Counted from the first letter of the stretch, positions 45,784 to 62,274 are shown. The stretch is DNA of 64,000 bases from Gammaproteobacteria bacterium (GCA_965221695.1 OZ244905.1:1792001-1856000); one strand, 5' to 3'. A program made the numbers and translations. The notes: a model not told the origin generated them from the sequence alone.

Positions 45784-45861
45784 AGCGGAAACCCAACCAT
45801 AACGGCCGCCTTGCCCGACAAGCGCGGATCTGCATTACTTTAATCATTCTCAGCATTTGGT

Positions 45862-46485
45862 TTAGCGCTCCCAGGTCCACGCTATCACCTTGGCCACATC
45901 TTAAACAAACACCGGCGTAAAACGCGCCTCGGCACAGGCCAATGGAAATACCAGCGGCGCCAACTTGAGCAATGTCGCAAAGCGGTTGAAGAAACTGTCC
46001 TCAATACCGAAAATCACAGAAGGATGGTAACTGGTGACCCGGATACCTACGGCGGCATGAACCATATCTTCCGCCGCCCCCTTGCTGCGCAGGTAATGGC
46101 TGGCTCCGGCCAGCGCATCCGCATCGATTGCGCTCATATGCAACAGGCGCTGTATGTTGAGCCGCCGGCAAGCGCGGATAACCTTGCCGGTCAACTCCAC
46201 ATGCACATGGTGAAAACCAGAATCGTTGCGCCCACCCTCATTCAGAATCCCGACCAGGTTGATGACCGCATCACAGCCAGACAATGCAGCAGAGAGTTGC
46301 TCCTGGTCGTGAACATCTACCTCAACCTGCTCCAGGTTCGCCAAGGAACCAAGAACTGGGTGGTTGCCCGTCCGTAAGCGTGTCAATATTTTCAACTCAT
46401 AACCGGCATGGCTCAATTCCCGAGCGAGCGCGCAGCCGAGAAAACCACTACCACCAAGGATGCCGATCTTTCTGATGTTATACTC
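45862..46485 (-). pseudogene. NDUFA9-like NAD-dependent epimerase/SDR pseudogene
   Basis: ILGGSGFLG, AVINLVGIL, HMSA, YLRSK. In-frame TAA in PVFV*DVAKV, a second stop soon after, and no proper start codon. Confidence 0.78.
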
Positions 46486-46738
46486 ATTCCTGGTGTGTAG
46501 AGATGAATGGTAAGGTATCGCCCTGAATTTATGTATTGTTATTTTGAGAGACAATAAGCAACACGAGGGGAGTACACCACCATAAAACAAGATACTGTAG
46601 TTGCCCTGAAAATGCCAGAAGATGATGAGGATATTCAGGCCCGTAGTATTTGGTGAGGTTGTCTGTCCATAAACGGGAATTGGATTGTGTATTCGTTCAA
46701 CAATATCTAAGAAGTATTACCTGTAGCGCTTCGGTGTG

Positions 46739-47839
46739 TCACCTCACCGGCAGCGTCAGCGTGGGTCCCCTGGATTGGGTTTGACCGGCCTGCAGGTCGA
46801 ACAATTGTCTTAGCAGCATGAAGGTGGATTTAGTTTCGAGGTCAGTGTCTTCAATGTAGAACCAGTGGTTGCGGTAGTAGGTGGCGATGTACGCGTTTTC
46901 GGGTCGTTCGGTGGCGGATTTGACTTTGAACAAGCGGCCGGCCGGGGTGTTGTTCCAGTCGAATGCGCCGCCGGTTTTTGCTGTTGTGGTAGTAACAAGG
47001 CCGTCGTACCGATGGCGGGCCGGAATTTCGACATTTTGCGACAGGTAATACAGCAGGCCGGAGATGGAACGGGTGCGTACTGACCATTGCGTGTGTTTTA
47101 TTTCCAGGAAGTCTGTGCTCAATTCAAAGTCATTGATATTACGGTCCAGTTGCAGCAACTCATAAATCCGGTCAGTTTCATATTTGTGATCATCCTGGCC
47201 GGTAACCAGTCTGACGATGATGGCATCGCCGCCCTCATTTTGCCTGGCGCCGATTTCTATCAACTGTTTTTTTTGTAGCGCGCTCAATGCTTGCAGTAAA
47301 ACGCTGAATTGTTCGTGCTCAGGTTCATGCTTCGGGGTCGGCCCGGAGGCGTTGGGCGCGTTGTAGAGATCATTGATTCGTTCCAGGCACAGGCCGAACA
47401 CCCGATCGATATTCCAACCTGATTGTGTCAACACCAGGATGTCTTCCAGTTGCACGGGGCTGAGGATGCTCTTTAGCAGATCTTCACCTTGCAGGGGTGT
47501 GTAGGAAATTGTTGGTTTGTCGAAATAGGCGACCCCGGCGCCGGGGCTGATACTGTCGCTGCCCCCGAAATTGACTCCGGCATTGAGCCCGGCATTCGCG
47601 CTCAGCGACAGGCTAGCCGTCACGCTACCGATTTCCAGGAAAAAAGGCACATCACGGTAGCGCATCCGCACCAGGTTTTGCAGCATCTGCTCATTGATGG
47701 AGGCAATTATGGCTTGATTGTAGGCGGGATGCGTGCGTTCCAGGGCCGTCGGGCCGAACGCTGACTGGCAGCCGGATAGCAGGACCGGCAGTGTCAATAT
47801 AAGGAGGGCGCTAATAAGGCGGTTGCGCATGGTGGTCAT
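46739..47839 (-). CDS. Hypothetical lipoprotein
   Basis: Lipobox LLSGC; YNQAI..EQMLQNLVRMRYRD.PFFL, PTISYTPLQG, WFYI.DTD..TKSTF. Confidence 0.8.
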   Translation of the reverse strand: MTTMRNRLISALLILTLPVLLSGCQSAFGPTALERTHPAYNQAIIASINEQMLQNLVRMRYRDVPFFLEIGSVTASLSLSANAGLNAGVNFGGSDSISPGAGVAYFDKPTISYTPLQGEDLLKSILSPVQLEDILVLTQSGWNIDRVFGLCLERINDLYNAPNASGPTPKHEPEHEQFSVLLQALSALQKKQLIEIGARQNEGGDAIIVRLVTGQDDHKYETDRIYELLQLDRNINDFELSTDFLEIKHTQWSVRTRSISGLLYYLSQNVEIPARHRYDGLVTTTTAKTGGAFDWNNTPAGRLFKVKSATERPENAYIATYYRNHWFYIEDTDLETKSTFMLLRQLFDLQAGQTQSRGPTLTLPVR

Positions 47840-47903
47840 AGATCGGAAGTCTACAGGATAGTGAGGTAGACATGAAGAATTTACTGGACGCTAAAAGCAG
47901 AGT

Positions 47904-47986
47904 GTCGCCTTAAGCGACCTGTTGTTTTACTGGATTCCCGTTTTTCAGCCTGCCCCTGTATGGCGTTGAGCAGGGGCGAGAATGGG
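47904..47986. repeat. Degenerate REP unit related to 32226-32444
   Basis: GTCGCCTTAAGCGACC...CTGGATTCCCG...[GCCCCTG..CAGGGGC]GAGAATGG. Confidence 0.5.
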
Positions 47987-48007
47987 ATAAGAAAGACTGT
48001 TCTTTTG

Positions 48008-48025
48008 AATGAATAATCATTCATT
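48008..48025. promoter_or_regulatory. Perfect inverted repeat AATGAAT-N4-ATTCATT, candidate TetR operator
   Basis: About 62 bp upstream of the first gene of the catabolic cluster. Confidence 0.6.
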
Positions 48026-48087
48026 TCTTGTGGACAGTATAACCCGGATATGGCATGATACGAATCGCATAACTCATCTCGGCCGAC

Positions 48088-49419
48088 ATGTCACGCAAAC
48101 ACGATAAATCAGCAGCACATTTTCAGAAGGCGTTGACTCGCCTGCCGCTGGGCGTGACTTCCAATTTTCGCTACTGGGGGGATGACAGAACGATTTACAT
48201 CAAACAGGGGAAAGGCGCCCGGATTTGGGATATCGACGGCAACGAATACATCGACTACCGCATGGGTTACGGCCCCGCTATCCTCGGGTACGCTGATGAA
48301 AGGGTCGACGAAGCCGCCCGTCACGGCATGGAGACAGGCGGCGTGTTCGCGCTGGCGACGGAGCTTGAATACCAGGTTGCTGAACGTCTTTGTAAGATGG
48401 CGCCGTCTGCCGAACAGGCGAGATTTTCCGTATCCGGAACGGAAGCGGTGATGGCTGCCTTGAGGCTGGCCCGAGCCTGTGCCGGTAAGGATGAGTACGT
48501 GCTGGTTGAAGGGGGTTATCACGGTATATTCAGCGAGGCGTTATGGTACTCTGAGGTCGAGAACTGGCAGGAAAAAGAAGGAGACCCGGCGCTGCTGCCC
48601 TATGGTGATGGCGTGCCAGACCTTTACCGCCACTTGGTTCACAGTGTTCCCTTGAACGATTCCGATCGCCTTGAAAGCCTGTTCCGACACCGCGCTGATA
48701 AAATCGCCGCATTCCTGATTGAACCTATCATGGGTAATTGCTGTTCCATCACCGCCAGCAACCAATACCTCAAGGATACGCGCGAACTGTGCAGCCGTTA
48801 TGACGTGATACTGATCATCGACGAGGTAAAAACCGGGTTCCGGGTCGCTAAAGGAGGCGCACAGGAACTGCTGGGGGTGGATGCGGACCTTTGCGCGTTT
48901 GCAAAAGCCATGGCCAACGGTTACCCGATTTCCGCGTTGGCCGGCAAGGAAGAATATATGCGCGCTATCGGAGACGGGGTGACCCATGGCGGCACTTACT
49001 GTGGCCACTCGGTCTCCCTGGCTGCCGCTGAAAGAACTCTGCAGATTCTCGATGAGACGGACGCGCTGGGATCCATCGCCGCCCGGGGCGAACAACTGCT
49101 GCAAGGCCTCGGCGAGGTATTGACCCGGCGCGGCATCCCTCATTGTTTTGTTGGTCATCCCTCCATGCCAGGATTATTCTTTAGTTCGGAACCGCCAAAT
49201 GACTACCGCGACTGGGCGCGTTCCGATTACACTTTCTACAAGGCGCTGGCGCCTAACCTGCATGACGCCGGCGTGCTGGTGGAACCTGATTCGCGCGAGC
49301 CGTGGTTCCTTTGCGAAGCCCACGATGAAGCCTGCATAGAAGAAACCGTGACAAAGTTTGAACAAGCGGTACACGTGACGCTCGAACAGCAACAGGGTAA
49401 GCGCTACGGAGCCGTCTAA
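48088..49419 (+). CDS. Class III PLP aminotransferase (GSA-aminomutase-like)
   Basis: WDIDGNEYIDY, SGTEAVM, GGYHG, IIDEVKTGFR, FAKAMANG. Confidence 0.88.
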   Translation: MSRKHDKSAAHFQKALTRLPLGVTSNFRYWGDDRTIYIKQGKGARIWDIDGNEYIDYRMGYGPAILGYADERVDEAARHGMETGGVFALATELEYQVAERLCKMAPSAEQARFSVSGTEAVMAALRLARACAGKDEYVLVEGGYHGIFSEALWYSEVENWQEKEGDPALLPYGDGVPDLYRHLVHSVPLNDSDRLESLFRHRADKIAAFLIEPIMGNCCSITASNQYLKDTRELCSRYDVILIIDEVKTGFRVAKGGAQELLGVDADLCAFAKAMANGYPISALAGKEEYMRAIGDGVTHGGTYCGHSVSLAAAERTLQILDETDALGSIAARGEQLLQGLGEVLTRRGIPHCFVGHPSMPGLFFSSEPPNDYRDWARSDYTFYKALAPNLHDAGVLVEPDSREPWFLCEAHDEACIEETVTKFEQAVHVTLEQQQGKRYGAV

Positions 49420-49507
49420 GCTGTATTCTCCATATATCATGTTTCCGATAACGCCAAACGACCTGGTGAGAAACACGGGTTAATACAGCCAACGGAGAAC
49501 AGAAGTC

Positions 49508-51124
49508 GTGAAGCATTATGACGCAATCGTCATCGGCGCCGGTCACAATGGCCTGACCAATGCCGCATTCCTGGCCAAGGCCGGTTTGTCTGTGCTGGTC
49601 GTGGAAAAAAATCCCTGGATAGGCGGCGCGTCTGTCAGCCGCTCCTTGTACCCGGGCTGGACTTATTCCAACTGTTCCTATGTATGCAGCCTGTTCCGCC
49701 CGGAGATCTACCGCGACCTGGAGTTGGCGCGCCACGGCCTGCAGGTCATTCCTTATGAAGGCGGCATCACCTTTATGCGCAACGGGGATTATTTTGGTAG
49801 TTATGGCGACGAGGAGCGCCAGTATCGGGAAATGGCGAGGCATTCAAGACGCGATGCCGACGCGTATTTTCGCTATGAGGCGGATGTGATGCGTCAGACC
49901 CAACTGATACGTCCGCTGTTAATGCGGACACCGCCGGACCCGACATCGTTCAGACCCCGGGACATCATGGAATTGATCCATTTCATAAAATCCTACTGGG
50001 ACCTGGGCGAGGAAGCCCTGTGCGATACCGTCCGCTTTTGGACCATGAGCATCGGCGACTTTCTGGACGAATATTTTGAAACAGACGTGATCAAAGCACA
50101 CCTGGCCGGCAGCGGCATTATCGGCACCGCGCTGGGGGTTTATTCTCCGGGCTCGGCCTACGTGTTGCTGCATCATTATATGGGCGATGTGGACGGCAGT
50201 ATCGGCTCCTGGGGTTTTGCACGAGGCGGCATGGGCGCCATCGCCAATGCTCTGGCCGGCGCTTTCCAGGCCCATGGCGGCGAGATTAAAGTCGATGCAG
50301 GCGTTGACAAAATCCTTGTGGACGGACGACGCGTCAAAGGCGTGGCGCTGGAAAACGGCGACGAATTCCACGCCGATATCGTCGTTTCCAATCTCGATCC
50401 GAAACGCACCTTCCTGGACATCATGAATGCAAGAGACCTGCCGCCGGAGCTGGTGAGCAAAGCGCGCAACTTCAAGATTCGCGGCTCTTCCGGGAAGCTC
50501 AATATCGCCCTGGACGGCATGCCCTCGTTTCATGCCATCTCCGGCGACCATGAGTTGTTCAAAGCGGATTTTCATTTTATCGACTCGCTGGAACGCATGG
50601 AACTGGCCTACGATGACTGGAAAAACGGTACCTGGTCAAAAGATCCTTACCTCGATACCCTGATACCCACCCGCGTCGACCCGACCATGGCCCCGCCCGG
50701 CAAACACATGATGAGCGTATTTGTCCAATATTGCCCGCCGCAAGTGAACGGCGAGGACTGGACCGATGAGCAACGGGATCAGTTCGGGCAAACCGTGATT
50801 GACCAGATTTCGGAATACAGTCCTGATTTCAAGGATTTGATCCTGCATGCTGAAATCCGCACACCGCGGGAGTTGGAACAGGAAGTGGGGCTGACCGAAG
50901 GCAACATCTTCCAGGGTGAACTGACCTTCGACCAACTGCTGTTTAACAGGCCCTTCCCTGGCTATGCTCGCTATCGAGGGCCTCTGCAAGGCATGTACCT
51001 GTGTGGTTCCGGCACGCACCCGGGCGGCGGCGTAATGGGCGCGCCGGGCGCTAATGCCGCCAGGGAAATCCTGCGCGACCTGCGCCGCGCCAATGTCGTC
51101 CCGGAAACGTTTTGTGATGACTGA
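49508..51124 (+). CDS. FAD-dependent oxidoreductase, COG1233/PYROXD2-like, subunit 1
   Basis: GAGHNGL, GGMGAI, GNIFQGEL, YLCGSGTHPGGGVMGAPG. Confidence 0.9.
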   Translation: MKHYDAIVIGAGHNGLTNAAFLAKAGLSVLVVEKNPWIGGASVSRSLYPGWTYSNCSYVCSLFRPEIYRDLELARHGLQVIPYEGGITFMRNGDYFGSYGDEERQYREMARHSRRDADAYFRYEADVMRQTQLIRPLLMRTPPDPTSFRPRDIMELIHFIKSYWDLGEEALCDTVRFWTMSIGDFLDEYFETDVIKAHLAGSGIIGTALGVYSPGSAYVLLHHYMGDVDGSIGSWGFARGGMGAIANALAGAFQAHGGEIKVDAGVDKILVDGRRVKGVALENGDEFHADIVVSNLDPKRTFLDIMNARDLPPELVSKARNFKIRGSSGKLNIALDGMPSFHAISGDHELFKADFHFIDSLERMELAYDDWKNGTWSKDPYLDTLIPTRVDPTMAPPGKHMMSVFVQYCPPQVNGEDWTDEQRDQFGQTVIDQISEYSPDFKDLILHAEIRTPRELEQEVGLTEGNIFQGELTFDQLLFNRPFPGYARYRGPLQGMYLCGSGTHPGGGVMGAPGANAAREILRDLRRANVVPETFCDD

Positions 51125-52676
51125 CCGTTACGATGCAATCGTCATAGGCGCCGGCCATAATGGCCTGGTTTGCGCCGCGTACCTGGCCCGCGCCGGTTAT
51201 TCAGTACTGGCGCTGGAAGCGAACGAGCAAGTCGGCGGCTGCGCCATCACCCGGGAGTTCGCTCCCGGCTATTCGGTCTCCGCCGGCGCGCACCTGTTGT
51301 GCGGATTGCCCGCGCGTATCGTCCACGACCTGGCGCCGGAACGGCGCGGCCTTCAATGGGCGGCCGCCGGCATGGATACGGTCGCGCTGGCGCCGGATGG
51401 CAATCACCTTACCTTGGGCCAGGATAGTGTGAACGGCCTTGAACTGCCCGGAGACGACCGCGCCGCATACCCCCTGTTCCTGCGCAAATACCGGCGCTTT
51501 GCCCGCTTGTTGCAAAAGACATTCCTGCGCCGACCTCCCCGGCTCGCCCATAATAGCCCGACGGAGCTGGCGCGCCTGGCCGGTCTGGCCCTGGAAGTGC
51601 GCCTGCTGGGCAAAGACCTGATGCGTGAATTGCTGCGCACCGGGGCAATCAATATCTACGATGTATTGCAGGAAACCTTCGCCGATAAGCGCTTGAAAGG
51701 CGCGCTCTCCCTGGATGCCCTGCTCGGCGCCAACCTGGGGCCGCGCTCGCCTGGTTCAGTCCTGACCTTCCTGTACCGATTGGCGGGACAGTGGGACCAT
51801 AGCGGCGTCTCGCTGCCCGCGGGAGGAATGAGCGCGCTGGCCCGCGCGCTGCGCAATGCCGCCGAGACCGCTGGGGTCGAGATCAGAACCGCGACACCGG
51901 TCAAGCGGGTGTTACTGGAACATGACCGGGCAGCCGGCGTAGAAACCGCATCAGGCGAACAGATAGCGGGGAGACTGATCGTATCCAATGCCGATCCGAA
52001 AACCACCTTCCTGCAACTGGTCGGAGCCAGGCACATGGAGACGGGTTTTGTCAGGCGCATTAATAATATTCGTATGCAGGGCAAGGCGGCCAAATTACAT
52101 CTCGCCCTGGACGGATTGCCGGAATTCCGGGGACTGACCGCGGCGCAAACGGGTCAAAGACTGCTGGTTGCGCCCTCGATGGATTATCTCGAGCAGGCAT
52201 TCGACGCCTCCAAGTACGGCAGGTTTTCTGAACAGCCAGCGCTGGAAATCAGTATCCCGACCAGCCACGACCAGAGCCTGGCGCCGTCCGGCAAGCATGT
52301 ATTGTCCGCCATCGTCCAGTACGTTCCCTTCCGGCTTCGTTCCGGTTGGGAAACCGGCAAAGACGCCCTTAAGCAATTGCTGATAAAACGCTTGGAGCAA
52401 TATGCGCCCGGCATCGGCAAGCAGGTAATTGCCGCAGAGTTGCTGGGGCCGCCGGACCTGGAAACAGAATTCAACATGCATGGCGGCCACTGGCATCACG
52501 GCGAATTAAGCATGGATCAATTTCTGATGCTACGGCCAGTCCCGAGCGCGGCGCGCTACCGCGCGCCGCTCACCGGACTGTACCTGTGCGGCGCCGGCTG
52601 CCACCCCGGCGGCGGTATAACCGGCTTGCCGGGATACAACGCCGCCAGGGAAATACTGAAACAGGAGAGGGCTTAA
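51117..52676 (+). CDS. FAD-dependent oxidoreductase, COG1233-like, subunit 2
   Basis: MTDRYDAIVIGAGHNGL, GHWHHGEL, YLCGAGCHPGGG; overlaps the previous gene. Confidence 0.9.
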   Translation: MTDRYDAIVIGAGHNGLVCAAYLARAGYSVLALEANEQVGGCAITREFAPGYSVSAGAHLLCGLPARIVHDLAPERRGLQWAAAGMDTVALAPDGNHLTLGQDSVNGLELPGDDRAAYPLFLRKYRRFARLLQKTFLRRPPRLAHNSPTELARLAGLALEVRLLGKDLMRELLRTGAINIYDVLQETFADKRLKGALSLDALLGANLGPRSPGSVLTFLYRLAGQWDHSGVSLPAGGMSALARALRNAAETAGVEIRTATPVKRVLLEHDRAAGVETASGEQIAGRLIVSNADPKTTFLQLVGARHMETGFVRRINNIRMQGKAAKLHLALDGLPEFRGLTAAQTGQRLLVAPSMDYLEQAFDASKYGRFSEQPALEISIPTSHDQSLAPSGKHVLSAIVQYVPFRLRSGWETGKDALKQLLIKRLEQYAPGIGKQVIAAELLGPPDLETEFNMHGGHWHHGELSMDQFLMLRPVPSAARYRAPLTGLYLCGAGCHPGGGITGLPGYNAAREILKQERA

Positions 52677-53860
52677 TGGTAGCTCGGGTCGCAGCGCAAC
52701 GGGTTTTACCCACGCCGTTTCATCGGCGCGCCGCAGCCGCGTGCGAGACCAATCTCTGGTCATCCTGGGCGGGATATACCGTCGTGGACTGCTATACCTC
52801 CGTGGAAGATGAATATTTCTCCATCCGTAACGCAAGCTCGGTGTTTGACCTCAGCCCCATGACCAAGTATCGCATCAGCGGTAAGGATGGGCTGGCCTAC
52901 CTGGACAAGCTGATGACGCGCAGGATGGACAAGCTGACCCCCGGGCAGGTCATGTACACACTCTGGTGCAATGATCAAGGGCGCCTGCTGGATGACGGAA
53001 CCGTCTTCCACCTGGGCGACAATCAATGGCGCTTGTGTTCCCAGGAACCACACCTGGACTGGCTGCTGGCAAGCGCCTTGGGTTTTGCTGTCGAGATTCG
53101 CGACGAATCGGAGGAACTGGCTGCCCTGGCTGTGCAAGGCCCCACTTCCTGCCGGACACTGAAAGCCATGGGCCTGGCAGATATCGAGCTACTCAAACCC
53201 TTTTCAGCGCGCGTTTTTCCATTTGAAAATAACGAACTGCTGATCTCGCGCACCGGTTTTACCGGCGACCTGGGTTATGAGTTATGGATGCAACCGGATG
53301 CTGCGGAATCCGTATGGGATGCCCTGTTCACGGCCGGCGCGCCGTTCGGCATCACGCCCATCGGCGGCCAGGCCCTGGATATTGCCCGCCTTGAGGCCGG
53401 TTTCATCCAGCCGGAAGCGGAGTTCATGCCTGCGGCCAACCTGGTGCGCCCGAACCGGGGCCGTTCCCCGTTCGAACTGGGTCTTGGCCACCTGGTGCAT
53501 CTCGACAAGCCGGTTTTCAACGGCAGACGGGCTTTGCTGGAAGAACAGCAACAAGGGTCGCGCTATCGCCTGGTCAGGCTGGATGTCGCCGGCAACAAGC
53601 CGGCCAGCGAAGCGTTTATTTACAATCACAAGGAGCAGGAGGTCGGGCACGTGACCTCGGCGGCCTGGTCACCCAGCGCCAAGATGAATATCGCCCTGGC
53701 CTCGTTGCAGATGCCCTGGGGCAGACCCGAGGATGAACTGTATGCGGAAGTATATTACGATAGCGAATTACAGTGGAACCGCCTCATGGCCCGCTGCAAA
53801 GTGGTGGAACACGCTTTTTTTGACCCGCCGCGACGGCGCAAGACCCCGGCGGATTGCTGA
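52676..53860 (+). CDS. GcvT-family aminomethyltransferase/demethylase
   Basis: EYFSIR..VFDLSPM, LLDDGTV, AVQGP, SRTGFTGDLGYEL, ARLEAG; TAATG coupling. Confidence 0.92.
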   Translation: MVARVAAQRVLPTPFHRRAAAACETNLWSSWAGYTVVDCYTSVEDEYFSIRNASSVFDLSPMTKYRISGKDGLAYLDKLMTRRMDKLTPGQVMYTLWCNDQGRLLDDGTVFHLGDNQWRLCSQEPHLDWLLASALGFAVEIRDESEELAALAVQGPTSCRTLKAMGLADIELLKPFSARVFPFENNELLISRTGFTGDLGYELWMQPDAAESVWDALFTAGAPFGITPIGGQALDIARLEAGFIQPEAEFMPAANLVRPNRGRSPFELGLGHLVHLDKPVFNGRRALLEEQQQGSRYRLVRLDVAGNKPASEAFIYNHKEQEVGHVTSAAWSPSAKMNIALASLQMPWGRPEDELYAEVYYDSELQWNRLMARCKVVEHAFFDPPRRRKTPADC

Positions 53861-53914
53861 ACAAAAAACATGATCTGACGGCTGCTCCCAACACAGCGAA
53901 CCCGGCGTAACAGC

Positions 53915-55309
53915 GTGAACAACTGCAAACAGACAACTCCGGAGGAACTGCAGGAATTTCTGGAAAGACACCCTGACACGAAGATGGTCGAACTCCTGCT
54001 GCCCGATATCAACGGTATCCTGCGGGGCAAACGTGTCGGCAGAGACGAACTCAATGCCTTGTACCGGCAGGGACTTAAAATGTGCGCCTCGACCCCGCTC
54101 ATCGACAGTCGCGGCGAAATTACCTTTGATATAAACCTGGGCACCCGGGACGGAGACCCGGATATCATGAGTTATCCGGTGGCCGGCACGCTGGCCCCGG
54201 TTCCCTGGTTGGGCGATTCAGCCATTGCTCAGGCATTTGTTACCTTGCGCGACCTGGATGGCGCGCCCTGGTTTGCTGACCCCCGTCAGGTATTGCGGCG
54301 CGTGTGCGACAAGCTGCAAGAACTGGGTTTGCGGGCGGTGGTCGCAACGGAATTCGAGTTTTACCTGCTGGAAACTGGGGAGGGCAATGCGCCACAGCCG
54401 CGTCTGGGCAGGATTCCCGGCACCGGACTGAAGCAACAAGGCCTGCAATATGCCAGCCTGGAGGATTTGTGGGAATGCGACCCGCTGCTCCGGGATGTGC
54501 AGCGCAACTGCGAAGCGCAAAACGTGCCCGCAAGCGCCGCGTTGCCTGAATTTTCTCCGGGGCAGTTTGAAATCAACCTTCACCACCAGGACGACCCGGC
54601 GCGCGCCTGCGACCACGGCGCAATGCTGAAACGCATCATCAAGGGAACCGCCTGCCGGCATGGACTGGGCGCGGCCTTCATGGCAAAACCCTTTGACAAC
54701 TACGCCGGCAGCGGGCTGCATATTCATGTCAGCCTGTTCGATGAGCAGGGAAACAATGTCTTCGCCGGCCCTGAAGACGAAACCAGGCCGTCCGTTTCCA
54801 GCGCGCTCAGGCATGCGGTAGGGGGGCTGCAACAGACCATGGCCGATGCCATGGCTTTGTTCGCTCCCAACGCCAATTCTTACCGGCGCCTGCAACCTGA
54901 CTCGTTTGTCCCGCTAAGTCCGAACTGGGGTTATAACCATCGGGCGGTTGCTTTGAGAGTGCCGGTGTGCGGCCGCCAGGATACCCGCATAGAACATCGG
55001 GTGGCAGGCGCGGATGCCAACCCGTACCTGGTAATGGCTGCGGTCCTGGCCGGCATTCATTACGGCATCACCCGTCAATGTGAACCAACTGAAATGATCG
55101 CTGAAGGGACTATGCTGGATAAACAGGAGATCGCCTTGCCGCGCCGTTGGGACGCAGCCCTGGACCGATTCCAGCACAGTGATGTGTTGCCGGAGTACCT
55201 GGGAGAGAAGTTTTGCCAGGTATTCGAGCTGGTCCGGCGCAGTGAGTGCGAACGCTTTCACAGCCAGGTCAGCAACCGTGATTACGAGTGGTATCTGCGC
55301 GGTGTTTAA
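53915..55309 (+). CDS. Glutamine synthetase-like gamma-glutamyl-amine ligase (PuuA/PauA type)
   Basis: DINGILRGKR, EFEFYL, EFSPGQFEINL, FMAKP, GSGLHIH, NANSYRR, EHRVAGADANPY. Confidence 0.9.
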   Translation: MNNCKQTTPEELQEFLERHPDTKMVELLLPDINGILRGKRVGRDELNALYRQGLKMCASTPLIDSRGEITFDINLGTRDGDPDIMSYPVAGTLAPVPWLGDSAIAQAFVTLRDLDGAPWFADPRQVLRRVCDKLQELGLRAVVATEFEFYLLETGEGNAPQPRLGRIPGTGLKQQGLQYASLEDLWECDPLLRDVQRNCEAQNVPASAALPEFSPGQFEINLHHQDDPARACDHGAMLKRIIKGTACRHGLGAAFMAKPFDNYAGSGLHIHVSLFDEQGNNVFAGPEDETRPSVSSALRHAVGGLQQTMADAMALFAPNANSYRRLQPDSFVPLSPNWGYNHRAVALRVPVCGRQDTRIEHRVAGADANPYLVMAAVLAGIHYGITRQCEPTEMIAEGTMLDKQEIALPRRWDAALDRFQHSDVLPEYLGEKFCQVFELVRRSECERFHSQVSNRDYEWYLRGV

Positions 55310-55442
55310 CTCGCATTCCAACAAGTCCGCTCAACCCGAATCTCTCATTACCAATTGATGCGATGATCGCTAACAGCAAACATCTATCCGATGCTGACAA
55401 GTGAATTGATGGGATCTTCGAGTTAGAGGTAAACTGAGAGTT

Positions 55443-56633
55443 ATGTCTTCACTATCACAACTCATTGACAACCAGCCGGAAGGGTTTTCCCTGCAACAGG
55501 CATTTTACCGGGATGCCGATATATACCGGCGCGAACTGGAGCGGCTGTTTATGAAGTCCTGGTTGTATGCCGGGCATGTCAGCCAGATTCCAGAAACCGG
55601 CGATTATTTTCTGTATGAACTGGCCGATGAATCCGTGATCATCGTACGCGCAGGCGAGAATTCCATTAAGGCATTCCTGAACCTGTGCCGCCATCGCGGT
55701 TCCCGTATCTGCCTGGAAGCGGAAGGCCGGCAGAAACTGCTGGTATGTCCATACCATGGCTGGACTTACCAGCTTGACGGCGCGCTGCGGGGCGCCAACT
55801 ACACACCGCCGGATTTCCAACGTTCGAATTATGCTCTGCGCGAGGCGCGGCTGGAGACGCTGCACGGGATGATCTTCATCAATTTTGACGAACAGACAGC
55901 CTCTTTCCAGCCGCTACGGCGCGATTTGGACGACTGCCTGCAGCCCTACAGGCTGGAACAGACCAAGGTGGCTCACAAGCAGAGTTACCCTATCCAGGCA
56001 AACTGGAAACTGGCGCTGGAAAATTATTGCGAGTGCTATCACTGCGTTCCCGCTCACCCCGAGTATGCTGAAGGACATGGCCGCTCATTTCCTGAGAAGG
56101 AGATGTCCGGCCTGCTGAAGCAGGTCATGGAACGAGGTAAACGGCTGGGACTGACCGATCATTGCGTTGACAAGAGCTGGTTGCATTCCGGCGTCGCCAA
56201 CGCAGACCGCGGCTTTGATCGCTATCCCCTGCTGAACGGCTTTGTCACCGGCAGCCGGGACGGCAAACCCGTGGCGCCGCTGCTGGGAGACCTGCGCGGT
56301 TATGACGGCGGCGCAACTGATATTCAGATCGGGCCGTTCACCTTTGCCCTGGCCTACTGCGACCACTTGGTCATCTATCATTTTCGCCCTTTGAATGTAG
56401 CCGACTGTGTTTGTGACATCACCTGGCTGGTCAATGAAAACGCGGTAGAGGGAAAAGATTACCATCAAGAGGAGCTGATCTGGCTCTGGGACATCACTAC
56501 CGTTGCCGACAAACGCATTATCGAGGACAATCAGAAAGGCATAAATTCCGCGTTTTACCAGCCAGGACCTTATACCGGCATGGAAGGTTTCACCCGCGGG
56601 TTCATCGACTGGTATCTGCGCGCGATGAAATAA
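55443..56633 (+). CDS. Rieske non-heme iron oxygenase alpha subunit (quaternary-amine/GbcA-like group)
   Basis: CRHRG..CPYHGW, NWKLALENYCECYHCVPAHPE, WDITTVAD. Confidence 0.9.
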   Translation: MSSLSQLIDNQPEGFSLQQAFYRDADIYRRELERLFMKSWLYAGHVSQIPETGDYFLYELADESVIIVRAGENSIKAFLNLCRHRGSRICLEAEGRQKLLVCPYHGWTYQLDGALRGANYTPPDFQRSNYALREARLETLHGMIFINFDEQTASFQPLRRDLDDCLQPYRLEQTKVAHKQSYPIQANWKLALENYCECYHCVPAHPEYAEGHGRSFPEKEMSGLLKQVMERGKRLGLTDHCVDKSWLHSGVANADRGFDRYPLLNGFVTGSRDGKPVAPLLGDLRGYDGGATDIQIGPFTFALAYCDHLVIYHFRPLNVADCVCDITWLVNENAVEGKDYHQEELIWLWDITTVADKRIIEDNQKGINSAFYQPGPYTGMEGFTRGFIDWYLRAMK

Positions 56634-56635
56634 CG

Positions 56636-57289
56636 ATGCGCAAGAGAGATCCGGGGAGCATCCCCGACAACAGGACCCTGGCAAAACAACGCCGCCAGGA
56701 ACAACTCATCAAGGCCACTATACGCTGTGTTGCCAAACGCGGCCTTTCCGCTACGACTATGGCGGACATCACCCAAGAGGCGGGGCTTAGCCTGGGGATC
56801 GTCAACCTGCACTTCAAGAGCAAGGACAAGCTGTTACTGGAAACCCTGAAATATCTGGCGGAAGAATATCGCCAGGCATGGGAAAAAACGTTACGCACGA
56901 CAGGGCCGGGGCCGGCGGAGAAACTTGCCGCCCTGGTAGAACTGGATTTTAGCAAAGCGATCTGTGATCACAAAAAAATCTCGGTGTGGTTCGCCTTCTG
57001 GGGCGAGGCCCGCGCGCGCCCCGTCTATATGAAAACCTGCGCCGAATATGACCACTATTACGTGCAGGAGGAAGCGCAACTGTTTGCTGAAATACTGCGT
57101 GACGATGACAACAACCGCCTTGATCCGATGATGCTGGCTACGACACTGGATGCGCTTGTGGACGGTCTGTGGGTGGATATGCTGTCAGCGCGGAATGCAA
57201 TCAGCCGTAACCAGGCCAAGCAACTGGTGATGGACTATCTGTGCTCAGTCCTGCCGGATCATTTTCACCGCACCGCCGAGCCGGACTGA
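56636..57289 (+). CDS. TetR-family regulator (BetI-like)
   Basis: RRQEQLIKAT..GLSLGIVNLHFKSKDKLL, VWFAFWGEA, ALVDGLW. Confidence 0.9.
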   Translation: MRKRDPGSIPDNRTLAKQRRQEQLIKATIRCVAKRGLSATTMADITQEAGLSLGIVNLHFKSKDKLLLETLKYLAEEYRQAWEKTLRTTGPGPAEKLAALVELDFSKAICDHKKISVWFAFWGEARARPVYMKTCAEYDHYYVQEEAQLFAEILRDDDNNRLDPMMLATTLDALVDGLWVDMLSARNAISRNQAKQLVMDYLCSVLPDHFHRTAEPD

Positions 57290-57375
57290 CCAACGATGGG
57301 GCAATCTCCGGATAACAGCGCCAGGGAGTGGGAGACGGGCCGGATGCGACGCAAACGAACGCGGCGGGTTTCACT

Positions 57376-58491
57376 ATGACGATGGCAGCGAACCGGCTTC
57401 CTCAGTATACAGGGAAGGCCATCCTGCTGATGCTGTTGGCGCTGTCATGCATGGCGCTTGCGGCGGAAGAAAAAGTCGTCAACATGTATAACTGGGCGGA
57501 CTATATCGGCCCGGCCACCATCGAAGATTTTGAACGGGAATACGGCATCAAGGTCAATTACGACATCTACGATACCACGGAGATTGTGGATGCCAAACTC
57601 ATGTCCGGCAATACCGGTTACGATGTCGTTGTGCATGCCGCGTCTTATTCCGCCCGCCTTATTGAGGCCGGCGTGTACCAGCCCTTGGAGCGCAGCCGCC
57701 TTGATAACTGGAAATATCTGGACCCGGACATTATGCAGATCATGGACGACTTCGACCCCGGAAACCGTTATGCGGCCCCGTATATGTGGGGAACGACTGG
57801 TATTTCCTATAACGTGGACATGCTCAGGGAACGCTACCCGGACGCGCCGCTGGATAGCGCCGATTTCTTTTTCAGGCCTGAAATCATTTCACGCTTTGCC
57901 GATTGCGGCGTGACCATGCTGGATGGCCCCATCGATGCGCTGCCTTCAGTCATGAGTTTCCTGGGTTATCCGGGCAATTCCATTGACCCGCAGCATCTGC
58001 GCGCGGCGGAACATGTGATGAAATCCATCCGGCCTTATATCCGCTATTTCAGTTCCGCCAAGATGCTGATCGACATGCCGAACAAGGAAGTATGCGTGGC
58101 CATGAGCTGGTCAGGTGATTATATCGTGGCCCGTAGCCGCGCCGCGGAGGCCGGCGTTGACATCAACCTGGCCTATGTCATGTCGAAAAACGCTGTTCAT
58201 ACCTGGATTGACTCCATGTTTATTCCCAGCGATGCCCCGCATCCGGACAACGCCCACCTCCTGGTCAACTTTCTGCTGCGCCCGGAGGTGATTGCGCAGG
58301 TTTCCAATTTCATTGGTTATGCCAACGCCAATCAGGCCGCGACTGCGCTGGTGGACCCGGACATTGCCGCAGACCCGGCCATTTATCCTGACGCCGATGT
58401 GCGCAGCCGCATGGAACTCTCCCTGGTCTATTCTCCCAAGATGGAGAGAAACCGGTCCCGGGCCTGGACGCGGATTAAATCAGGTCTTTGA
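57376..58491 (+). CDS. Polyamine-type ABC substrate-binding protein (PotF/SpuD-like)
   Basis: YNWADYI, GYDVVV, PYMWGTTG, SWSGD, WTRIKSG. Confidence 0.9.
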   Translation: MTMAANRLPQYTGKAILLMLLALSCMALAAEEKVVNMYNWADYIGPATIEDFEREYGIKVNYDIYDTTEIVDAKLMSGNTGYDVVVHAASYSARLIEAGVYQPLERSRLDNWKYLDPDIMQIMDDFDPGNRYAAPYMWGTTGISYNVDMLRERYPDAPLDSADFFFRPEIISRFADCGVTMLDGPIDALPSVMSFLGYPGNSIDPQHLRAAEHVMKSIRPYIRYFSSAKMLIDMPNKEVCVAMSWSGDYIVARSRAAEAGVDINLAYVMSKNAVHTWIDSMFIPSDAPHPDNAHLLVNFLLRPEVIAQVSNFIGYANANQAATALVDPDIAADPAIYPDADVRSRMELSLVYSPKMERNRSRAWTRIKSGL

Positions 58492-58511
58492 AAACTGTGG
58501 TGTAATACCAA

Positions 58512-59606
58512 GTGGACAAAACGCTCATTCAGATTGAAAACCTCTGTAAACATTACGGCGATTTTCCCGCTGTGCGTGACGTCAGTCTCGATATTTTCCA
58601 GGGTGAATTGTTTTCCATACTCGGTGGTTCGGGTTGCGGTAAGACCACCTTGCTGCGCATGCTGGCGGGATTTGAGCAACCGAGTTCCGGCAGGATCCTG
58701 ATCGATGGCATCGATATGGCCGGCGTGCCCCCCTATGAGCGCCCTGTCAATATGATGTTCCAGTCATATGCCATCTTCCCGCACATGAATGTTGAGGATA
58801 ACGTTGCCTACGGCCTGAAGAAAGAGGGCCTGCCGAAATCAGCGGCGCGCGCGCGGGTGGACGAAATGCTGGAACTGGTGCAACTGGCGGAGTTCGCCCG
58901 CCGCAAACCCCGACAGCTATCCGGCGGCCAGCGGCAACGGGTCGCCCTGGCGCGGGCGTTGGTCAAACGTCCTAAAGTCCTGCTTCTGGATGAGCCGCTG
59001 GCGGCGCTGGACAAGAAGCTGCGCGAGCGCACCCAGTTCGAGTTGATGAACATCCAGGACCAGACCGGCGTGACGTTTATCGTCGTCACTCATGACCAGG
59101 AGGAAGCCATGACCCTGTCGACCCGCATCGCAGTTATGCGCGAAGGCAGGTTTATCCAGTGCGGCGCGCCGCAACAGATCTACGAATATCCGGCGAACCG
59201 CTATGTTGCGGATTTTTTCGGAACCATCAATTTGTTCGAAGGCTTGGTCAGCCGCGTTGACGGTGACAACATAACAATAACATGCGCTGCGGTGAACGCT
59301 GACATCAAAGCAAAAACGACGACCCGGATCAACCGTTCCGATCGGCTGACGGTTGCCGTGAGACCTGAGAAAATCTCGATCTCGAAAAAACCTCCAGACG
59401 CCGGCGTTGCGGCCGCGCTGAAAGGGGTGGTCCTGGACCTGGGCTATTACGGGAGCCTATCCGTGTACCGCATCAGCACAGATGCGGGATTCGTTGTCCA
59501 AGTCAGCGCCCAGAACCGAATGCGCTCAGCCGAAAGAAGCCTGGAATGGGATGACGTGGTATACCTTTCCTGGGATATTGGCAGCAGCGTGGTATTAGCA
59601 GAATGA
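58512..59606 (+). CDS. Polyamine ABC ATP-binding protein (PotG-like)
   Basis: GGSGCGKTT, PPYERPVNMMFQSYA, LSGGQRQR, TOBE tail. Confidence 0.92.
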   Translation: MDKTLIQIENLCKHYGDFPAVRDVSLDIFQGELFSILGGSGCGKTTLLRMLAGFEQPSSGRILIDGIDMAGVPPYERPVNMMFQSYAIFPHMNVEDNVAYGLKKEGLPKSAARARVDEMLELVQLAEFARRKPRQLSGGQRQRVALARALVKRPKVLLLDEPLAALDKKLRERTQFELMNIQDQTGVTFIVVTHDQEEAMTLSTRIAVMREGRFIQCGAPQQIYEYPANRYVADFFGTINLFEGLVSRVDGDNITITCAAVNADIKAKTTTRINRSDRLTVAVRPEKISISKKPPDAGVAAALKGVVLDLGYYGSLSVYRISTDAGFVVQVSAQNRMRSAERSLEWDDVVYLSWDIGSSVVLAE

Positions 59607-60499
59607 CACATTCGGACAAGCTTTGGCGGCTCGTGGTCATCTCCACGCCCTATCTGTGGCTGTTGGTTTTTTTTCTGTTGCCGTTCCTGTTCGTCCTCAA
59701 GATCAGTTTTGCCGATCCGATCGTCGCGCTACCGCCGTTTACCGCGCTATTCGATCCTGCCAGGGAAGGCGGACGCTGGTTCCAGATCACACTGGATAAT
59801 TACCGCTTCATACTCGAAGATGACCTGTATTGGATCAGTTACTTCAAATCGATCAGGATTGCCTTCATCTCGACCTGCCTGTGCCTGCTCATCGGATACC
59901 CGATGGCTTATGCCATCGCTCGGGCCGCGCCGGGCTGGCGCAACCTGTTTCTATTCCTGGTCATCCTGCCGTTCTGGACCTCGTTTCTGCTGCGGGTTTA
60001 CGCCTGGATGGGCATGCTGAGCACGAACGGCGTGATCAACAACCTGCTGATCGGGGCGGGTCTTATTGACCAACCCTTGAAACTGTTGTACACGGATTTT
60101 GCGGTCTATATGGGCATCATTTACTCGTACCTGCCATTCATGATCCTGCCGTTGTACGCCAACCTGGAGCGGTTGGACTACAGTCTGAACGAAGCGGCAG
60201 CGGATCTCGGCGCCAGGCCCCTGGCAATTTTCCGTGATATCACACTCCCTCTTTCCTTACCCGGCATTATCGCGGGCTGCCTGCTGGTGTTCATTCCTGC
60301 GCTGGGGGAATTTGTCATTCCGGCCTTGCTGGGCGGACTCGATTCGCTGATGATAGGCCGTACCCTGTACGATGAATTTTTTACCAATCGCGATTGGCCG
60401 CTGTCGTCAGCGGTTGCTGTTATCCTGTTACTCATCCTGGTGGCGCCCATCATGCTGTTCCAACATTACCAGGCGCGCGGGACCGCGGACCAACCATGA
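59603..60499 (+). CDS. Polyamine ABC permease (PotH-like)
   Basis: ILPFWTSFLLRVYAW, EAAADLGA. Confidence 0.92.
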   Translation: MTHSDKLWRLVVISTPYLWLLVFFLLPFLFVLKISFADPIVALPPFTALFDPAREGGRWFQITLDNYRFILEDDLYWISYFKSIRIAFISTCLCLLIGYPMAYAIARAAPGWRNLFLFLVILPFWTSFLLRVYAWMGMLSTNGVINNLLIGAGLIDQPLKLLYTDFAVYMGIIYSYLPFMILPLYANLERLDYSLNEAAADLGARPLAIFRDITLPLSLPGIIAGCLLVFIPALGEFVIPALLGGLDSLMIGRTLYDEFFTNRDWPLSSAVAVILLLILVAPIMLFQHYQARGTADQP

Positions 60500-60530
60500 T
60501 CTGCCAGCGTTCCATTGCGCGCCAGCCCCG

Positions 60531-60566
60531 CCATTACCGCGCAAGCGGAGATCCATTGGATTCCGG
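60531..60566. repeat. Degenerate REP doublet in the potH-potI spacer
   Basis: CCATTACCGCGCAAGCGGAGATCCA TTGGATTCCGG. Confidence 0.5.
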
Positions 60567-60581
60567 TTTACAGGACAAATC

Positions 60582-61412
60582 ATGAACAAACCGCGATCCA
60601 GGTTTCTGTTGACTGTGCTCTGCTTTGGTTATGCGTTCCTTTATATCCCGATCGTCATGGTGATGGTATATTCGTTCAACGATTCCCGTATTGTCTCGGT
60701 CTGGGGCGGTTTTTCTCTGCGCTGGTATGCGGCTCTGCTGGAGAACCGGCAGCTACTTGAGGCGGCCCTGCTCAGCTTGCGCATTGCCTTCATCAGCGCC
60801 ACCTTTGCCACCGCGCTGGGGACGCTGGCCGGACTTGCCCTGGCTCGGATCAGGAAGTTCCGCGGCAGGCTACTTTTTTCCGGCCTTATCGCGGCGCCGC
60901 TGGTCATGCCGGAGGTCATCACCGGGCTATCGTTGTTGCTGCTGTTTGTCAGCCTGCAGGATTTCACCGGCTGGCCGGGCGGACGAGGCGCCATGACCAT
61001 CACCATTGGTCATATCACCTTTTCCATGGCCTATGTCGCAGTGATTGTGCAATCGAGATTGATTTCCATGGACCAGTCCCTGGAGGAAGCGGCCATGGAC
61101 CTGGGCGGACGGCCATTCCAGGTGATGTTTGATATTACCTTGCCCATCATCGCGCCGGCCATGCTGTCCGGCTGGTTGCTGGCATTTACCCTGTCGCTGG
61201 ATGATCTGGTGATCGCCAGTTTCGTGTCCGGCCCGGGCGCCAGCACCCTACCCATGTGGATTTTCTCCAAGGTCCGCCTGGGCGTCACCCCTGACGTCAA
61301 CGCGCTGGCGACCCTGATCATTCTCACTGTCAGCCTCGGGACGTTCATCGCCGGCCTGATTTTGCTGCGCCAGCATCGGCAACAACGGCAGGCCAGCCAC
61401 TCATCCGCTTGA
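60582..61412 (+). CDS. Polyamine ABC permease (PotI-like)
   Basis: FLYIPIV..YSFN, PLVMPEVITG, LEEAAMDLG, FTLSLDD. Confidence 0.92.
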   Translation: MNKPRSRFLLTVLCFGYAFLYIPIVMVMVYSFNDSRIVSVWGGFSLRWYAALLENRQLLEAALLSLRIAFISATFATALGTLAGLALARIRKFRGRLLFSGLIAAPLVMPEVITGLSLLLLFVSLQDFTGWPGGRGAMTITIGHITFSMAYVAVIVQSRLISMDQSLEEAAMDLGGRPFQVMFDITLPIIAPAMLSGWLLAFTLSLDDLVIASFVSGPGASTLPMWIFSKVRLGVTPDVNALATLIILTVSLGTFIAGLILLRQHRQQRQASHSSA

Positions 61413-61427
61413 ACCCGAGGGCCAGTT

Positions 61428-62267
61428 ATGTTCATCGCCAATTTCCATGTTCTGAAACAATCCGCCAAATGGATTGTGTATTCCTTGCTGCTGGTAAATT
61501 TCGCTTTTTACCTGAATTGGGACTGGCATGTCGCCACTCATGCGCTGGCGCCAGCGGCGCCGCTAAATCATTGGTTGCGGGCTTTTGCTGCGTCCATCGA
61601 CCACGCGTCCTGGCTCACTCTGATCATCCTGTTCGAACTGGAAACCTATACCCTGTCCGATGAAGCATTCACCCCGCTGGTAAGAAGAACCATGCATGGG
61701 ATTCGTCTGTTGTGTTACCTGTTTATCTTGCATACGGTCTATGCTTACAGCCACAGCGCGTATGAAGTCCAATATAAAGTGGAGCAGGCAACGGGCGTGT
61801 CCGACCTGTGCCAGGTAGCAGACGGGCGTCTATCGTTTGTCTACAACCAGCAATATACCTATCTCAATGAAGACAACTGCGCAGAACTTGGCCAAGGCAA
61901 TGAATTTTTTCTGCTGGAGAAGGGGCTGGTGATTGCCGACTCCATCAGCCTGAAGAGAGAAAGATGGCTGGCATGGTTGGATCTGGTTGAGGCTGTGATC
62001 TGGCTATTCATCATGGGACTGATCGAAGCAACCATCAGACTGCAGGAACGCGGGATATCAAGAGGACGGACCATGGCTACGCTGAATTATCTCAAGTTTG
62101 CCGGTTTTAGCGCGTTGATAGGCATCGCGTCTCACTGGGGACTGACCGGCCTGTTGCTGAATTTCTGGGATGAAATCCTTTGGATAGGCGGATTTGTCGC
62201 GATCGAGATGAACATGTCGGACTGGCGCGAAGAACTTGAGGGAGAGCAGGTCGTAAGGCTGGCCTGA
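61428..62267 (+). CDS. Hypothetical multi-TM membrane protein
   Basis: About 6 hydrophobic segments and a loop with two Cys; tightly spaced within the operon. Confidence 0.75.
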   Translation: MFIANFHVLKQSAKWIVYSLLLVNFAFYLNWDWHVATHALAPAAPLNHWLRAFAASIDHASWLTLIILFELETYTLSDEAFTPLVRRTMHGIRLLCYLFILHTVYAYSHSAYEVQYKVEQATGVSDLCQVADGRLSFVYNQQYTYLNEDNCAELGQGNEFFLLEKGLVIADSISLKRERWLAWLDLVEAVIWLFIMGLIEATIRLQERGISRGRTMATLNYLKFAGFSALIGIASHWGLTGLLLNFWDEILWIGGFVAIEMNMSDWREELEGEQVVRLA

Positions 62268-62274
62268 GGTTGCC

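Follow-up and report, generated by a model that had tools for sequence, protein, structure and literature searches.

A conserved FlavA-FlavB-GcvT trio in an amine import and breakdown operon as a candidate folate-coupled demethylase on a different flavoprotein scaffold

Which reaction would two phytoene-desaturase-like flavoproteins carry out next to a folate-binding protein in a cluster of genes for amine import and catabolism? The question is raised by eleven plus-strand genes lying head to tail at positions 48088-61412 of a 64,000-nt stretch of DNA from Gammaproteobacteria bacterium (GCA_965221695.1 OZ244905.1:1792001-1856000); the whole stretch is called the window here, and features are counted from its first letter. 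As read from the list of open reading frames (ORFs) and from Pfam and NCBIfam matches, the genes encode a class-III aminotransferase, two paralogous flavoproteins of CrtI/COG1233 fold (FlavA and FlavB), a stand-alone GcvT-like protein, a glutamine synthetase (GS)-like ligase, a Rieske oxygenase alpha subunit, a BetI-like TetR regulator and a PotFGHI-type importer (Table 1). All eight gene types named in an earlier annotation of this DNA, the sequence-only reading, were present and co-oriented where it had placed them, and the gene content bore out its description of the surroundings of the FlavA-FlavB-GcvT trio as amine import and catabolism. The locus is an operon for the import and breakdown of a putrescine-like amine. 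The trio is most likely a device for folate-coupled amine demethylation of a known kind, built on a different flavoprotein scaffold; we infer both chemistry and substrate, and give a probability of about 0.55 to oxidative, folate-coupled N-demethylation of a methylated di- or polyamine.

The conservation of the trio was followed with a profile of FlavB orthologues, which found at least 388 relatives in species-representative genomes. The best 80 loci were kept; 63 of them had room on both sides of FlavB, and 52, called long loci below, measured 18 kb or more. Coding regions for FlavA, FlavB and GcvT were found in this order and on one strand in 63/63 loci with room on both sides, which supports the co-occurrence across genomes that the sequence-only reading had put forward as a check. 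By an automatic rule the trio was intact in 59 of these 63 loci; L031, L097 and L099 each have one gene broken across two frames, and in L062, from a Pseudomonadales metagenome-assembled genome, FlavB and GcvT form one in-frame ORF of 937 residues (9968-12781) with all motifs intact. FlavA and FlavB overlapped in 52 of the 56 complete loci, and the gap between FlavB and GcvT was 20 nt or less in 46 of them, as judged with a start-codon heuristic. Both Gamma- and Alphaproteobacteria harbour the trio, among them Steroidobacteraceae, Woeseiaceae, Halieaceae, Mesorhizobium, Shinella and Kiloniellaceae, and even a more distant copy (GcvT 39%, FlavA 56% identity) retains the trio arrangement.

When seven of the nine other genomes of the same genus with a match were compared, the order aminotransferase, FlavA, FlavB, GcvT, GS, Rieske was kept in 7/7, with an extra ADP-forming acyl-coenzyme A (CoA) synthetase in one and an acyl-CoA-dehydrogenase-like gene before potF in four. 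Because the same arrangement recurs in related genomes, it is far from a chance grouping. In the window itself, the start of FlavB was corrected from position 51054 of the ORF list to the ATG at 51117, which gives an 8-nt overlap with FlavA (stop TGA 51122-51124), and the ATG of the GcvT-like gene at 52676 lies within TAATG, has one base in common with the FlavB TAA and is preceded by AGGAG. Reading of these junctions thus confirmed both the overlapping COG1233 pair and the TAATG coupling that had been noticed earlier. Together, these genome comparisons support the trio as a conserved and tightly coupled unit.

Fused proteins in the databases were inspected in parallel. Two apparent FlavB-GcvT proteins (P0155 and P0157) were rejected as true fusions, being frameshift artefacts in which likeness is lost across the junction. 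Five proteins of FlavA-FlavB length (P0162-P0166) were also treated as artefacts, because their alignment to FlavA stops at residue 344-505 and in four cases the sequence then runs on without a match. Two further entries, each a single protein record, combine a full FlavA-like module with a preceding GcvT module (P0167) or with a preceding region that has a GFA formaldehyde-activating domain (P0169). These two hint weakly at a link between the flavoprotein family and one-carbon handling and, with the L062 fusion, give a faint indication of contact between the modules.

A direct interaction was addressed by folding FlavB together with the GcvT-like protein, with alignments of 57 orthologues of each as input. 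The pair scored 0.86 (median of three runs) versus 0.00 for the best of three controls; the mark used for this score was met by 116 of 157 solved complexes and by 2 of 215 mismatched pairs, counts that are rough since our own alignments were used. At least 97% of the contacts agreed between runs, and the predicted local distance difference test (pLDDT) value of the partner was at least 89. The predicted interface involves loop 303-313 and residues 477 and 484 of FlavB, following the invariant GGHWH(H)GE loop 456-463, and residues 71-79, 99-100, 129-137 and 279-285 of the GcvT-like protein. On the GcvT side, interface conservation was 0.77 vs 0.65 for the rest of the protein, a value reached by 301 of 10,000 random sets. 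To our knowledge, no solved complex pairs a CrtI-fold protein with a GcvT protein, so it seems unlikely that the pair passed through memory of the model. The prediction supports binding of the GcvT-like protein by FlavB. Of the three-subunit N-demethylase proposed in the sequence-only reading, the FlavB-GcvT contact, the constancy and tight coupling of the trio and the use of a CrtI rather than a D-amino-acid oxidase (DAO) fold thereby gained support, and the FlavA-FlavB heterodimer, like the reaction with its substrate and electron acceptor, is inferred.

The nature of the GcvT-like protein was examined by profile comparison. Its closest solved relative was the C-terminal tetrahydrofolate (THF) domain of trimethylamine N-oxide demethylase, Tdm (9q5a, 1.1e-73), followed in order by T-proteins, DmdA (3tfh, 2.8e-44), dimethylglycine dehydrogenases and oxidase, SoxA, and LigM (5x1i, 9.2e-26); values for the folate domains of 4p9s, 1pj5, 1vrq and 2gag ranged from 1e-37 to 1e-42. 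Tdm was also the best NCBIfam match (NF053776, 251 bits vs a cut-off of 1100), over model positions 388-760 of 763, and the motifs DDGT, LGYE and RIEAG, which align with Tdm, are invariant or nearly so in the 57 orthologues. The THF domain of Tdm traps formaldehyde from amine demethylation. The N-terminal catalytic part of Tdm is absent from the GcvT-like protein, whose reaction partner here would be the flavoprotein pair.

A housekeeping T-protein was considered and rejected, since the protein stays below the gcvT cut-off (TIGR00528, 160.9 bits vs 235.85), no gcvP was found in the genome and the gene is patchily present in the genus. In the organism's own genome, which is 96.85% complete, gcvP was not found and no gcvT scored above the cut-off, and gcvH lies at C1:1163224-1163589; judged by these searches, a canonical glycine cleavage system is apparently missing. 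Of 22 other genomes in the genus, 9 had an orthologue, whereas none of 18 genomes sampled nearby from other genera did. A sample of 400 further genomes from across the phylum yielded 10, in 6 of 212 genera with its own counted. The gene is an accessory trait. Elsewhere the genome carries two SoxA-like genes and one gene of dimethylglycine dehydrogenase type, and genome G013 has a second GcvT paralogue (35% identity) without flavoprotein neighbours.

The kinship with DmdA and LigM, together with a BetI-like regulator, would also fit a redox-independent methyltransferase that moves the methyl group of an onium or ether compound to 5-methyl-THF, with FlavAB oxidising the demethylated product. However, the GcvT-like protein is much closer to the formaldehyde- or iminium-capturing domain of Tdm and to T-proteins than to either of these enzymes, and its predicted docking beside a conserved FlavB loop suggests the hand-over of an intermediate, so that a methyltransferase of this sort is very unlikely in our judgement.

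FlavA and FlavB are 35% identical over 524 aligned positions, which cover the whole length, and both matched the crtI_fam and CrtO NCBIfam models far under the cut-offs. An AlphaFold2 model of FlavA (pLDDT 84.8, predicted template modelling score 0.88) had its best fold match in carotenoid desaturase 4rep (template modelling score 0.77/0.84), then in 3ka7 and CrtI (4dgk), and next in nicotine oxidoreductase NicA2, monoamine oxidases and putrescine oxidase. The modelling supports a CrtI/amine-oxidase fold for the flavoproteins, unlike the DAO fold of dimethylglycine dehydrogenase. GxGxxG, the acidic residue (Glu) after it and a C-terminal HPGGG are kept in both proteins. FlavA is the more conserved of the two, with a mean column identity of 75% over 57 orthologues and an invariant YSNCSYVCSL motif; in the same number of FlavB orthologues, G456, G457, H458, W459 and H460 (GGHWH) are invariant.

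Enzymes made of two paralogous subunits already exist in this family. As described in the available portions of the two reports, limonene dehydrogenase CtmAB is a COG1233 enzyme with subunits 27% identical that works with ferredoxin and its reductase (PMC4109377), and delta-24 sterol desaturase has two paralogous subunits, 26% identical, each with flavin mononucleotide (FMN) covalently bound to the His of G-F-L/R-X-N/S-T/L-H-A (PMC11061730). Within what these portions cover, the two are the only assayed enzymes of the family with two paralogous subunits, and both are heteromers with a flavin in each subunit (PMC4109377, PMC11061730); uncharacterised relatives of the desaturase in Halieaceae are also noted there (PMC11061730). 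Like them, FlavA and FlavB are encoded side by side as paralogous members of the phytoene-desaturase-like family, and by analogy they would form a heterodimer. Unlike FlavA and FlavB, these enzymes have no folate partner, act on terpene or sterol carbons and carry the motif for His-bound FMN, and CtmAB uses a ferredoxin and a reductase, neither of which is encoded in the amine cluster. At the corresponding site, placed by motif only, FlavA has an invariant G-W-x-Y-S-N-C-S (here G-W-T-Y-S-N-C-S) with Cys56, and FlavB has G-Y-S-V-S-A-G-A-H59, its nearly invariant His59 standing two places further on. That FlavA carries a cysteinyl-linked flavin is only a guess from these residues.

The same relatives suggest a different role, in which FlavAB would be a carbon-chain dehydrogenase, desaturase or hydroxylase of the CtmAB or delta-24 sterol desaturase kind, acting on the skeleton of the imported compound or on its CoA ester, and the GcvT-like protein would serve a separate folate step though docked on FlavB. 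The only heteromeric relatives assayed in those portions oxidise allylic C-H bonds (PMC11061730, PMC4109377), the best fold match is a carotenoid desaturase, and related loci add genes for an ADP-forming acyl-CoA synthetase, an acyl-CoA dehydrogenase and a 3-hydroxyacyl-CoA dehydrogenase-thioesterase (counts below). Yet such a role leaves the folate protein, which is invariably in order with the pair, without a function; hydrophobic isoprenoid substrates do not match a PotF-type importer, and the fold matches that come next are the amine oxidases. Carbon-chain chemistry is therefore regarded as rather unlikely, and folate-coupled demethylation is preferred.

Further members of the flavoprotein family were found in the same genome. 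A second tandem pair lies at C1:691353-694499 (L009 8192-11521), without an adjacent GcvT gene and with a LigM-like gene about 6 kb away on the opposite strand, and two single copies (C1:1374042-1375634 and C1:2540862-2542430) each lie directly past a gene for a TonB-dependent receptor, which suggests that other substrates enter via the outer membrane.

Folate-linked oxidation of N-methyl groups has well-known precedents. Dimethylglycine and sarcosine dehydrogenases join an amine-oxidising domain that binds flavin adenine dinucleotide (FAD) to a GcvT/THF domain, and in sarcosine oxidase the folate domain lies on a second, non-catalytic nucleotide-binding subunit. Like these enzymes, dimethylglycine oxidase and SoxBDAG, the trio couples a flavoprotein that would oxidise N-methyl groups to a GcvT-type folate module. 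It differs from the dimethylglycine/sarcosine enzyme family in that the latter unites a DAO-fold FAD domain and the folate domain in one chain, whereas the trio has the CrtI/COG1233 fold, two flavoproteins and a separate folate polypeptide. FlavB with its GcvT partner recalls the arrangement of folate domain and non-catalytic subunit in sarcosine oxidase. Identity with heterotetrameric sarcosine oxidase or N-methylglutamate dehydrogenase was also tested: no SoxB-type beta subunit and no soxD- or soxG-like gene was found in 48088-62267, and the soxB model matched FlavB only across its dinucleotide-binding start (24 bits). Apart from Tdm, the only enzymes known to us for folate-linked amine demethylation are DAO-fold flavoproteins, namely sarcosine oxidase and the dehydrogenases of dimethylglycine and sarcosine. 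With somewhat less than even odds, the trio may represent a new architectural class, in which a CrtI-fold heterodimer of the CtmAB type, possibly with a cysteinyl flavin in FlavA, docks a stand-alone GcvT protein and gives it the iminium carbon.

The ORFs of the 80 loci were compared with one another on a non-overlapping subset, which at times picks antisense ORFs in GC-rich DNA, and the genes beside the trio were counted in the 52 long loci. PotG was found in 36/52, the BetI-like TetR in 35/52, the aminotransferase in 26/52, the Rieske oxygenase in 22/52, an acyl-CoA dehydrogenase in 19/52, an aldehyde dehydrogenase in 17/52, an ADP-forming CoA ligase (acyl-CoA synthetase) in 12/52, the GS-like ligase in 11/52, and a PF01593 amine oxidase and a 3-hydroxyacyl-CoA dehydrogenase-thioesterase in 9/52 each. 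A PurU-like (formyl-THF deformylase-like) gene was present in one, L064, and L041 has a GFA formaldehyde-activating domain near the trio. Because they accompany the trio in only 11 and 22 of these loci, the GS-like and Rieske genes are accessories rather than core parts.

PuuA and PauA glutamylate amines, and Rieske enzymes of the GbcA/Stc2 type N-demethylate quaternary amines. The present homologues fell short of the corresponding models: the GS-like ligase scored 227 bits with the gamma-glutamylputrescine synthetase model (cut-off 650), the Rieske alpha subunit 320 bits with the GbcA model NF058607 (cut-off 670), and the regulator 118.7 and 117.9 bits with the BetI models TIGR03384 (cut-off 201.3) and NF001978 (cut-off 118). 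The cluster shares a Rieske alpha subunit and a BetI-type TetR with the GbcAB/BetI glycine-betaine system but has no GbcB gene.

The PotF-like protein matched PotF structures at E values of about 1e-101 to 1e-103. At the presumed ligand-contact positions of PotF it keeps W37, D39, Y40, W244, D247, D278 and Y314, but E185 is replaced by Asp, residue 38 is Ala and residue 276 is Trp; the PotF chains compared are engineered variants. With a PotF-like binding protein that has the diamine-binding residues of PotF, the lysine derivatives offered as a substrate option by the sequence-only reading found no support.

The importer with its retained PotF ligand residues, the GS-like ligase and the class-III aminotransferase would also suit an ordinary cluster for the use of putrescine, one that combines Puu-like glutamylation with Spu-like transamination and has the trio as an unrelated neighbour. 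Compared with the E. coli PotFGHI/Puu system, the transporter is of the same type and a GS-like ligase is present, yet the Pot, PuuA, GbcA and BetI equivalog cut-offs were all missed and only the cut-off of the broader polyamine ATPase subfamily TIGR01187 was passed. It is also the trio that is constant, whereas the Puu-like parts vary (GS in 11 and aminotransferase in 26 of the long loci), and the cluster has no PuuB-, PuuC- or PuuD-like gene. Plain putrescine utilisation beside an unrelated trio is thus extremely improbable.

In many soil relatives, with loci of the Steroidobacteraceae type (L084, L025, L058 and similar), the neighbours of the trio include an acyl-CoA dehydrogenase, an ADP-forming acyl-CoA synthetase and a fusion of 3-hydroxyacyl-CoA dehydrogenase with a thioesterase domain. 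This set presumably resembles a gamma-butyrobetaine/carnitine route, and in those relatives the amine skeleton may end as an omega-(methyl)amino acid.

The best explanation of the locus is that the operon is repressed by the TetR protein and imports a putrescine-like, probably N-methylated, di- or polyamine through the PotFGHI-type transporter. Once the putrescine-like amine has been imported, TetR would leave its operator and the FlavAB heterodimer would turn an N-methyl (N-CH2) bond into an iminium by oxidation. Without release of formaldehyde, the one-carbon unit would then go to tetrahydrofolate, giving 5,10-methylene-THF, by way of the GcvT-like protein, which would sit on FlavB beside its conserved GGHWHH loop. 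The aminotransferase could take off the terminal primary amine, the GS-like ligase could gamma-glutamylate a free amine, and the Rieske enzyme could demethylate or hydroxylate a more substituted amine. Disposal of the skeleton would proceed by transamination and, in many relatives, also by aldehyde oxidation and CoA-dependent steps, with glutamylation and the Rieske enzyme as probable lineage-specific extras. In this view the trio would correspond, in split form, to dimethylglycine/sarcosine dehydrogenase and heterotetrameric sarcosine oxidase, with a CrtI-fold flavoprotein where those enzymes have a DAO-fold one.

Several points weigh against an N-demethylase. In the available portions of their reports, the characterised paired relatives oxidise allylic terpene or sterol carbons and not amines (PMC4109377, PMC11061730), and the flavinylation motif of the desaturase is kept neither in FlavA nor in FlavB. 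Folate-cycle neighbours are rare, as the single PurU-like gene among the 52 long loci illustrates, and within the cluster there is no Rieske reductase gene and no gene for an electron acceptor (electron transfer flavoprotein, ferredoxin). Judged from its residues, the binding protein looks able to take plain putrescine, which has no methyl group. The interface residues of FlavB are no better conserved than the rest of the protein (0.62 vs 0.63). Since the 80 loci are related to each other and were selected for similarity to FlavB, their counts show linkage, not independent events. Most of the apparent trio gene fusions in databases are frameshift artefacts, and the L062 fusion, P0167 and P0169 are single records that may reflect sequencing errors. 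Finally, literature searches, which left most subscription journals uncovered, found no paper on the FlavA-FlavB-GcvT trio.

If folate-coupled demethylation by the trio is correct, a second, unrelated flavoprotein scaffold would serve this chemistry, a case of convergent enzyme design, and a reaction could be assigned to widespread genes annotated as 'phytoene desaturase family'. Bacteria of soil and marine sediment (Woeseiaceae, Halieaceae, Steroidobacteraceae, Mesorhizobium) would then appear to feed on methylated polyamine-like compounds. The large PYROXD2-like orphan branch, the human mitochondrial enzyme included, would gain its first testable reaction type, N-methyl amine oxidation, which might guide work on PYROXD2. 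The trio is compact, occurs in cultured bacteria such as Mesorhizobium sophorae ICMP 19535, Lentisalinibacter orientalis YNA5901 and Candidatus Seongchinamella marina IMCC8485, and is directly testable.

The link to PYROXD2, which the sequence-only reading had drawn from human variants associated with methylamine and N-methyl-lysine levels, stands on automatically assigned cluster names and on one human locus. The ESM Atlas clusters nearest to FlavA carry such PYROXD2-like names. According to the available parts of the sources, human PYROXD2 is a mitochondrial flavoprotein of unknown function (PMC8777681), and trimethylamine and dimethylamine levels show an association with the HPS1/PYROXD2 locus, where HPS1 is favoured over PYROXD2 as the likelier causal gene (PMC9286311).

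The positions of the genes and of the upstream signals are collected in Table 1. The start of potI was set at an in-frame ATG that follows AGGA. Past it, after 15 nt, begins a gene for a 279-aa protein whose membership of the operon is uncertain; it had zero Pfam (also at a lax threshold) or NCBIfam matches and only unnamed clusters in the ESM Atlas, and L103 has a counterpart after potI with 73% identity.

Table 1. Genes of the amine cluster and signals upstream of it, in window positions
Feature	Position	Strand	Match or remark
Terminator-like hairpin followed by a T run, both strands	47904-47918		consensus match only
Operator-like palindrome TGAATGAAT-n-ATTCATTCA	48006-48025	+	perfect inverted repeat, 7-nt arms
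Promoter-like site TGGACA-17 nt-CATGAT, TG ahead of the -10 element	48031-48059	+	consensus match only
Class-III (HemL/GntE-like) aminotransferase	48088-49419	+	PF00202, E 1.9e-60; NF041362 (GntE) 459 bits, below cut-off 525
FlavA, CrtI/COG1233-fold flavoprotein, 538 aa	49508-51124	+	PF01593/PF13450
FlavB, FlavA-paralogous flavoprotein, 519 aa	51117-52676	+	PF01593/PF13450
GcvT-like stand-alone folate-binding protein, 394 aa	52676-53860	+	PF01571, PF08669
GS-like ligase, candidate gamma-glutamyl-amine ligase	53915-55309	+	PF00120, E 4.3e-94
Rieske non-haem-iron oxygenase alpha subunit, GbcA-like	55443-56633	+	PF00355, PF00848
BetI-like TetR-family regulator	56636-57289	+	PF00440, PF13977 (BetI-type C-terminal domain)
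PotF-like periplasmic binding protein	57328-58491	+	NF007962 380 bits, below cut-off 636
PotG/PotA-like ATP-binding cassette ATPase	58512-59606	+	TIGR01187 405.9 bits, above cut-off 355.6; PotG equivalog 458, below 613
PotH-like permease	59603-60499	+	NF007963 394.6 bits, below cut-off 489
PotI-like permease	60582-61412	+	NF007889 342.5 bits, below cut-off 476
Hydrophobic 279-aa membrane protein, possible last gene	61428-62267	+	without family match

Upstream of the operon, the hairpin parts a minus-strand gene from the cluster. The palindrome lies about 82 nt upstream of the aminotransferase start, directly before the promoter-like site, and abuts its -35 element. It is kept in seven of eight same-genus loci at a constant distance from the aminotransferase start, with diverged flanks, and is absent from L106; the elements TGGACA and TGGCAT(G/C)AT also recur in the aligned upstream regions of the genus. 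The palindrome is a candidate operator for the BetI-like TetR, with a footprint as expected of such an operator. An Rfam scan of 44000-64000 revealed no riboswitch or other RNA element, its single match having an E value of 0.8.

The cluster is preceded in L103, L107 and L109 by the atp operon together with a conserved hypothetical gene. In the window, the segment 43751-46590 between the atp operon and the cluster holds a 196-aa ORF, an AAA_14/DUF4143 ATPase gene (44647-45783) and a short gene resembling short-chain dehydrogenases/epimerases (45901-46590); this group is missing from the same place in the three loci and looks like a small insertion. Past the cluster, 62275-63999 (+) encodes a tetratricopeptide-repeat (TPR) protein with a C-terminal sulfotransferase domain. 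Genome G228 encodes a TPR/sulfotransferase protein 43% identical to it (L112 17362-19473), some 3 kb away from the TetR gene that accompanies its trio, and L064 has a sulfotransferase near the trio.

Two other features of the window were recorded. A probable selenoprotein gene lies at 7030-8217 (-), where the match of ORF 7477-8217 to the model for AhpD-related 'CFYUT' (seleno)proteins covers only positions 1-238 of 357; with TGA read as selenocysteine (U) the ORF extends to 396 residues, with C-F-Y-U-T at codon 247, and the genome has a tRNA-Sec gene at C1:1498762-1498854. At 19519-21657 (+), a calcium-binding repeat protein of the RTX/serralysin-like type is encoded in a stretch with a low GC content (0.45) and a strongly positive GC skew (0.155).

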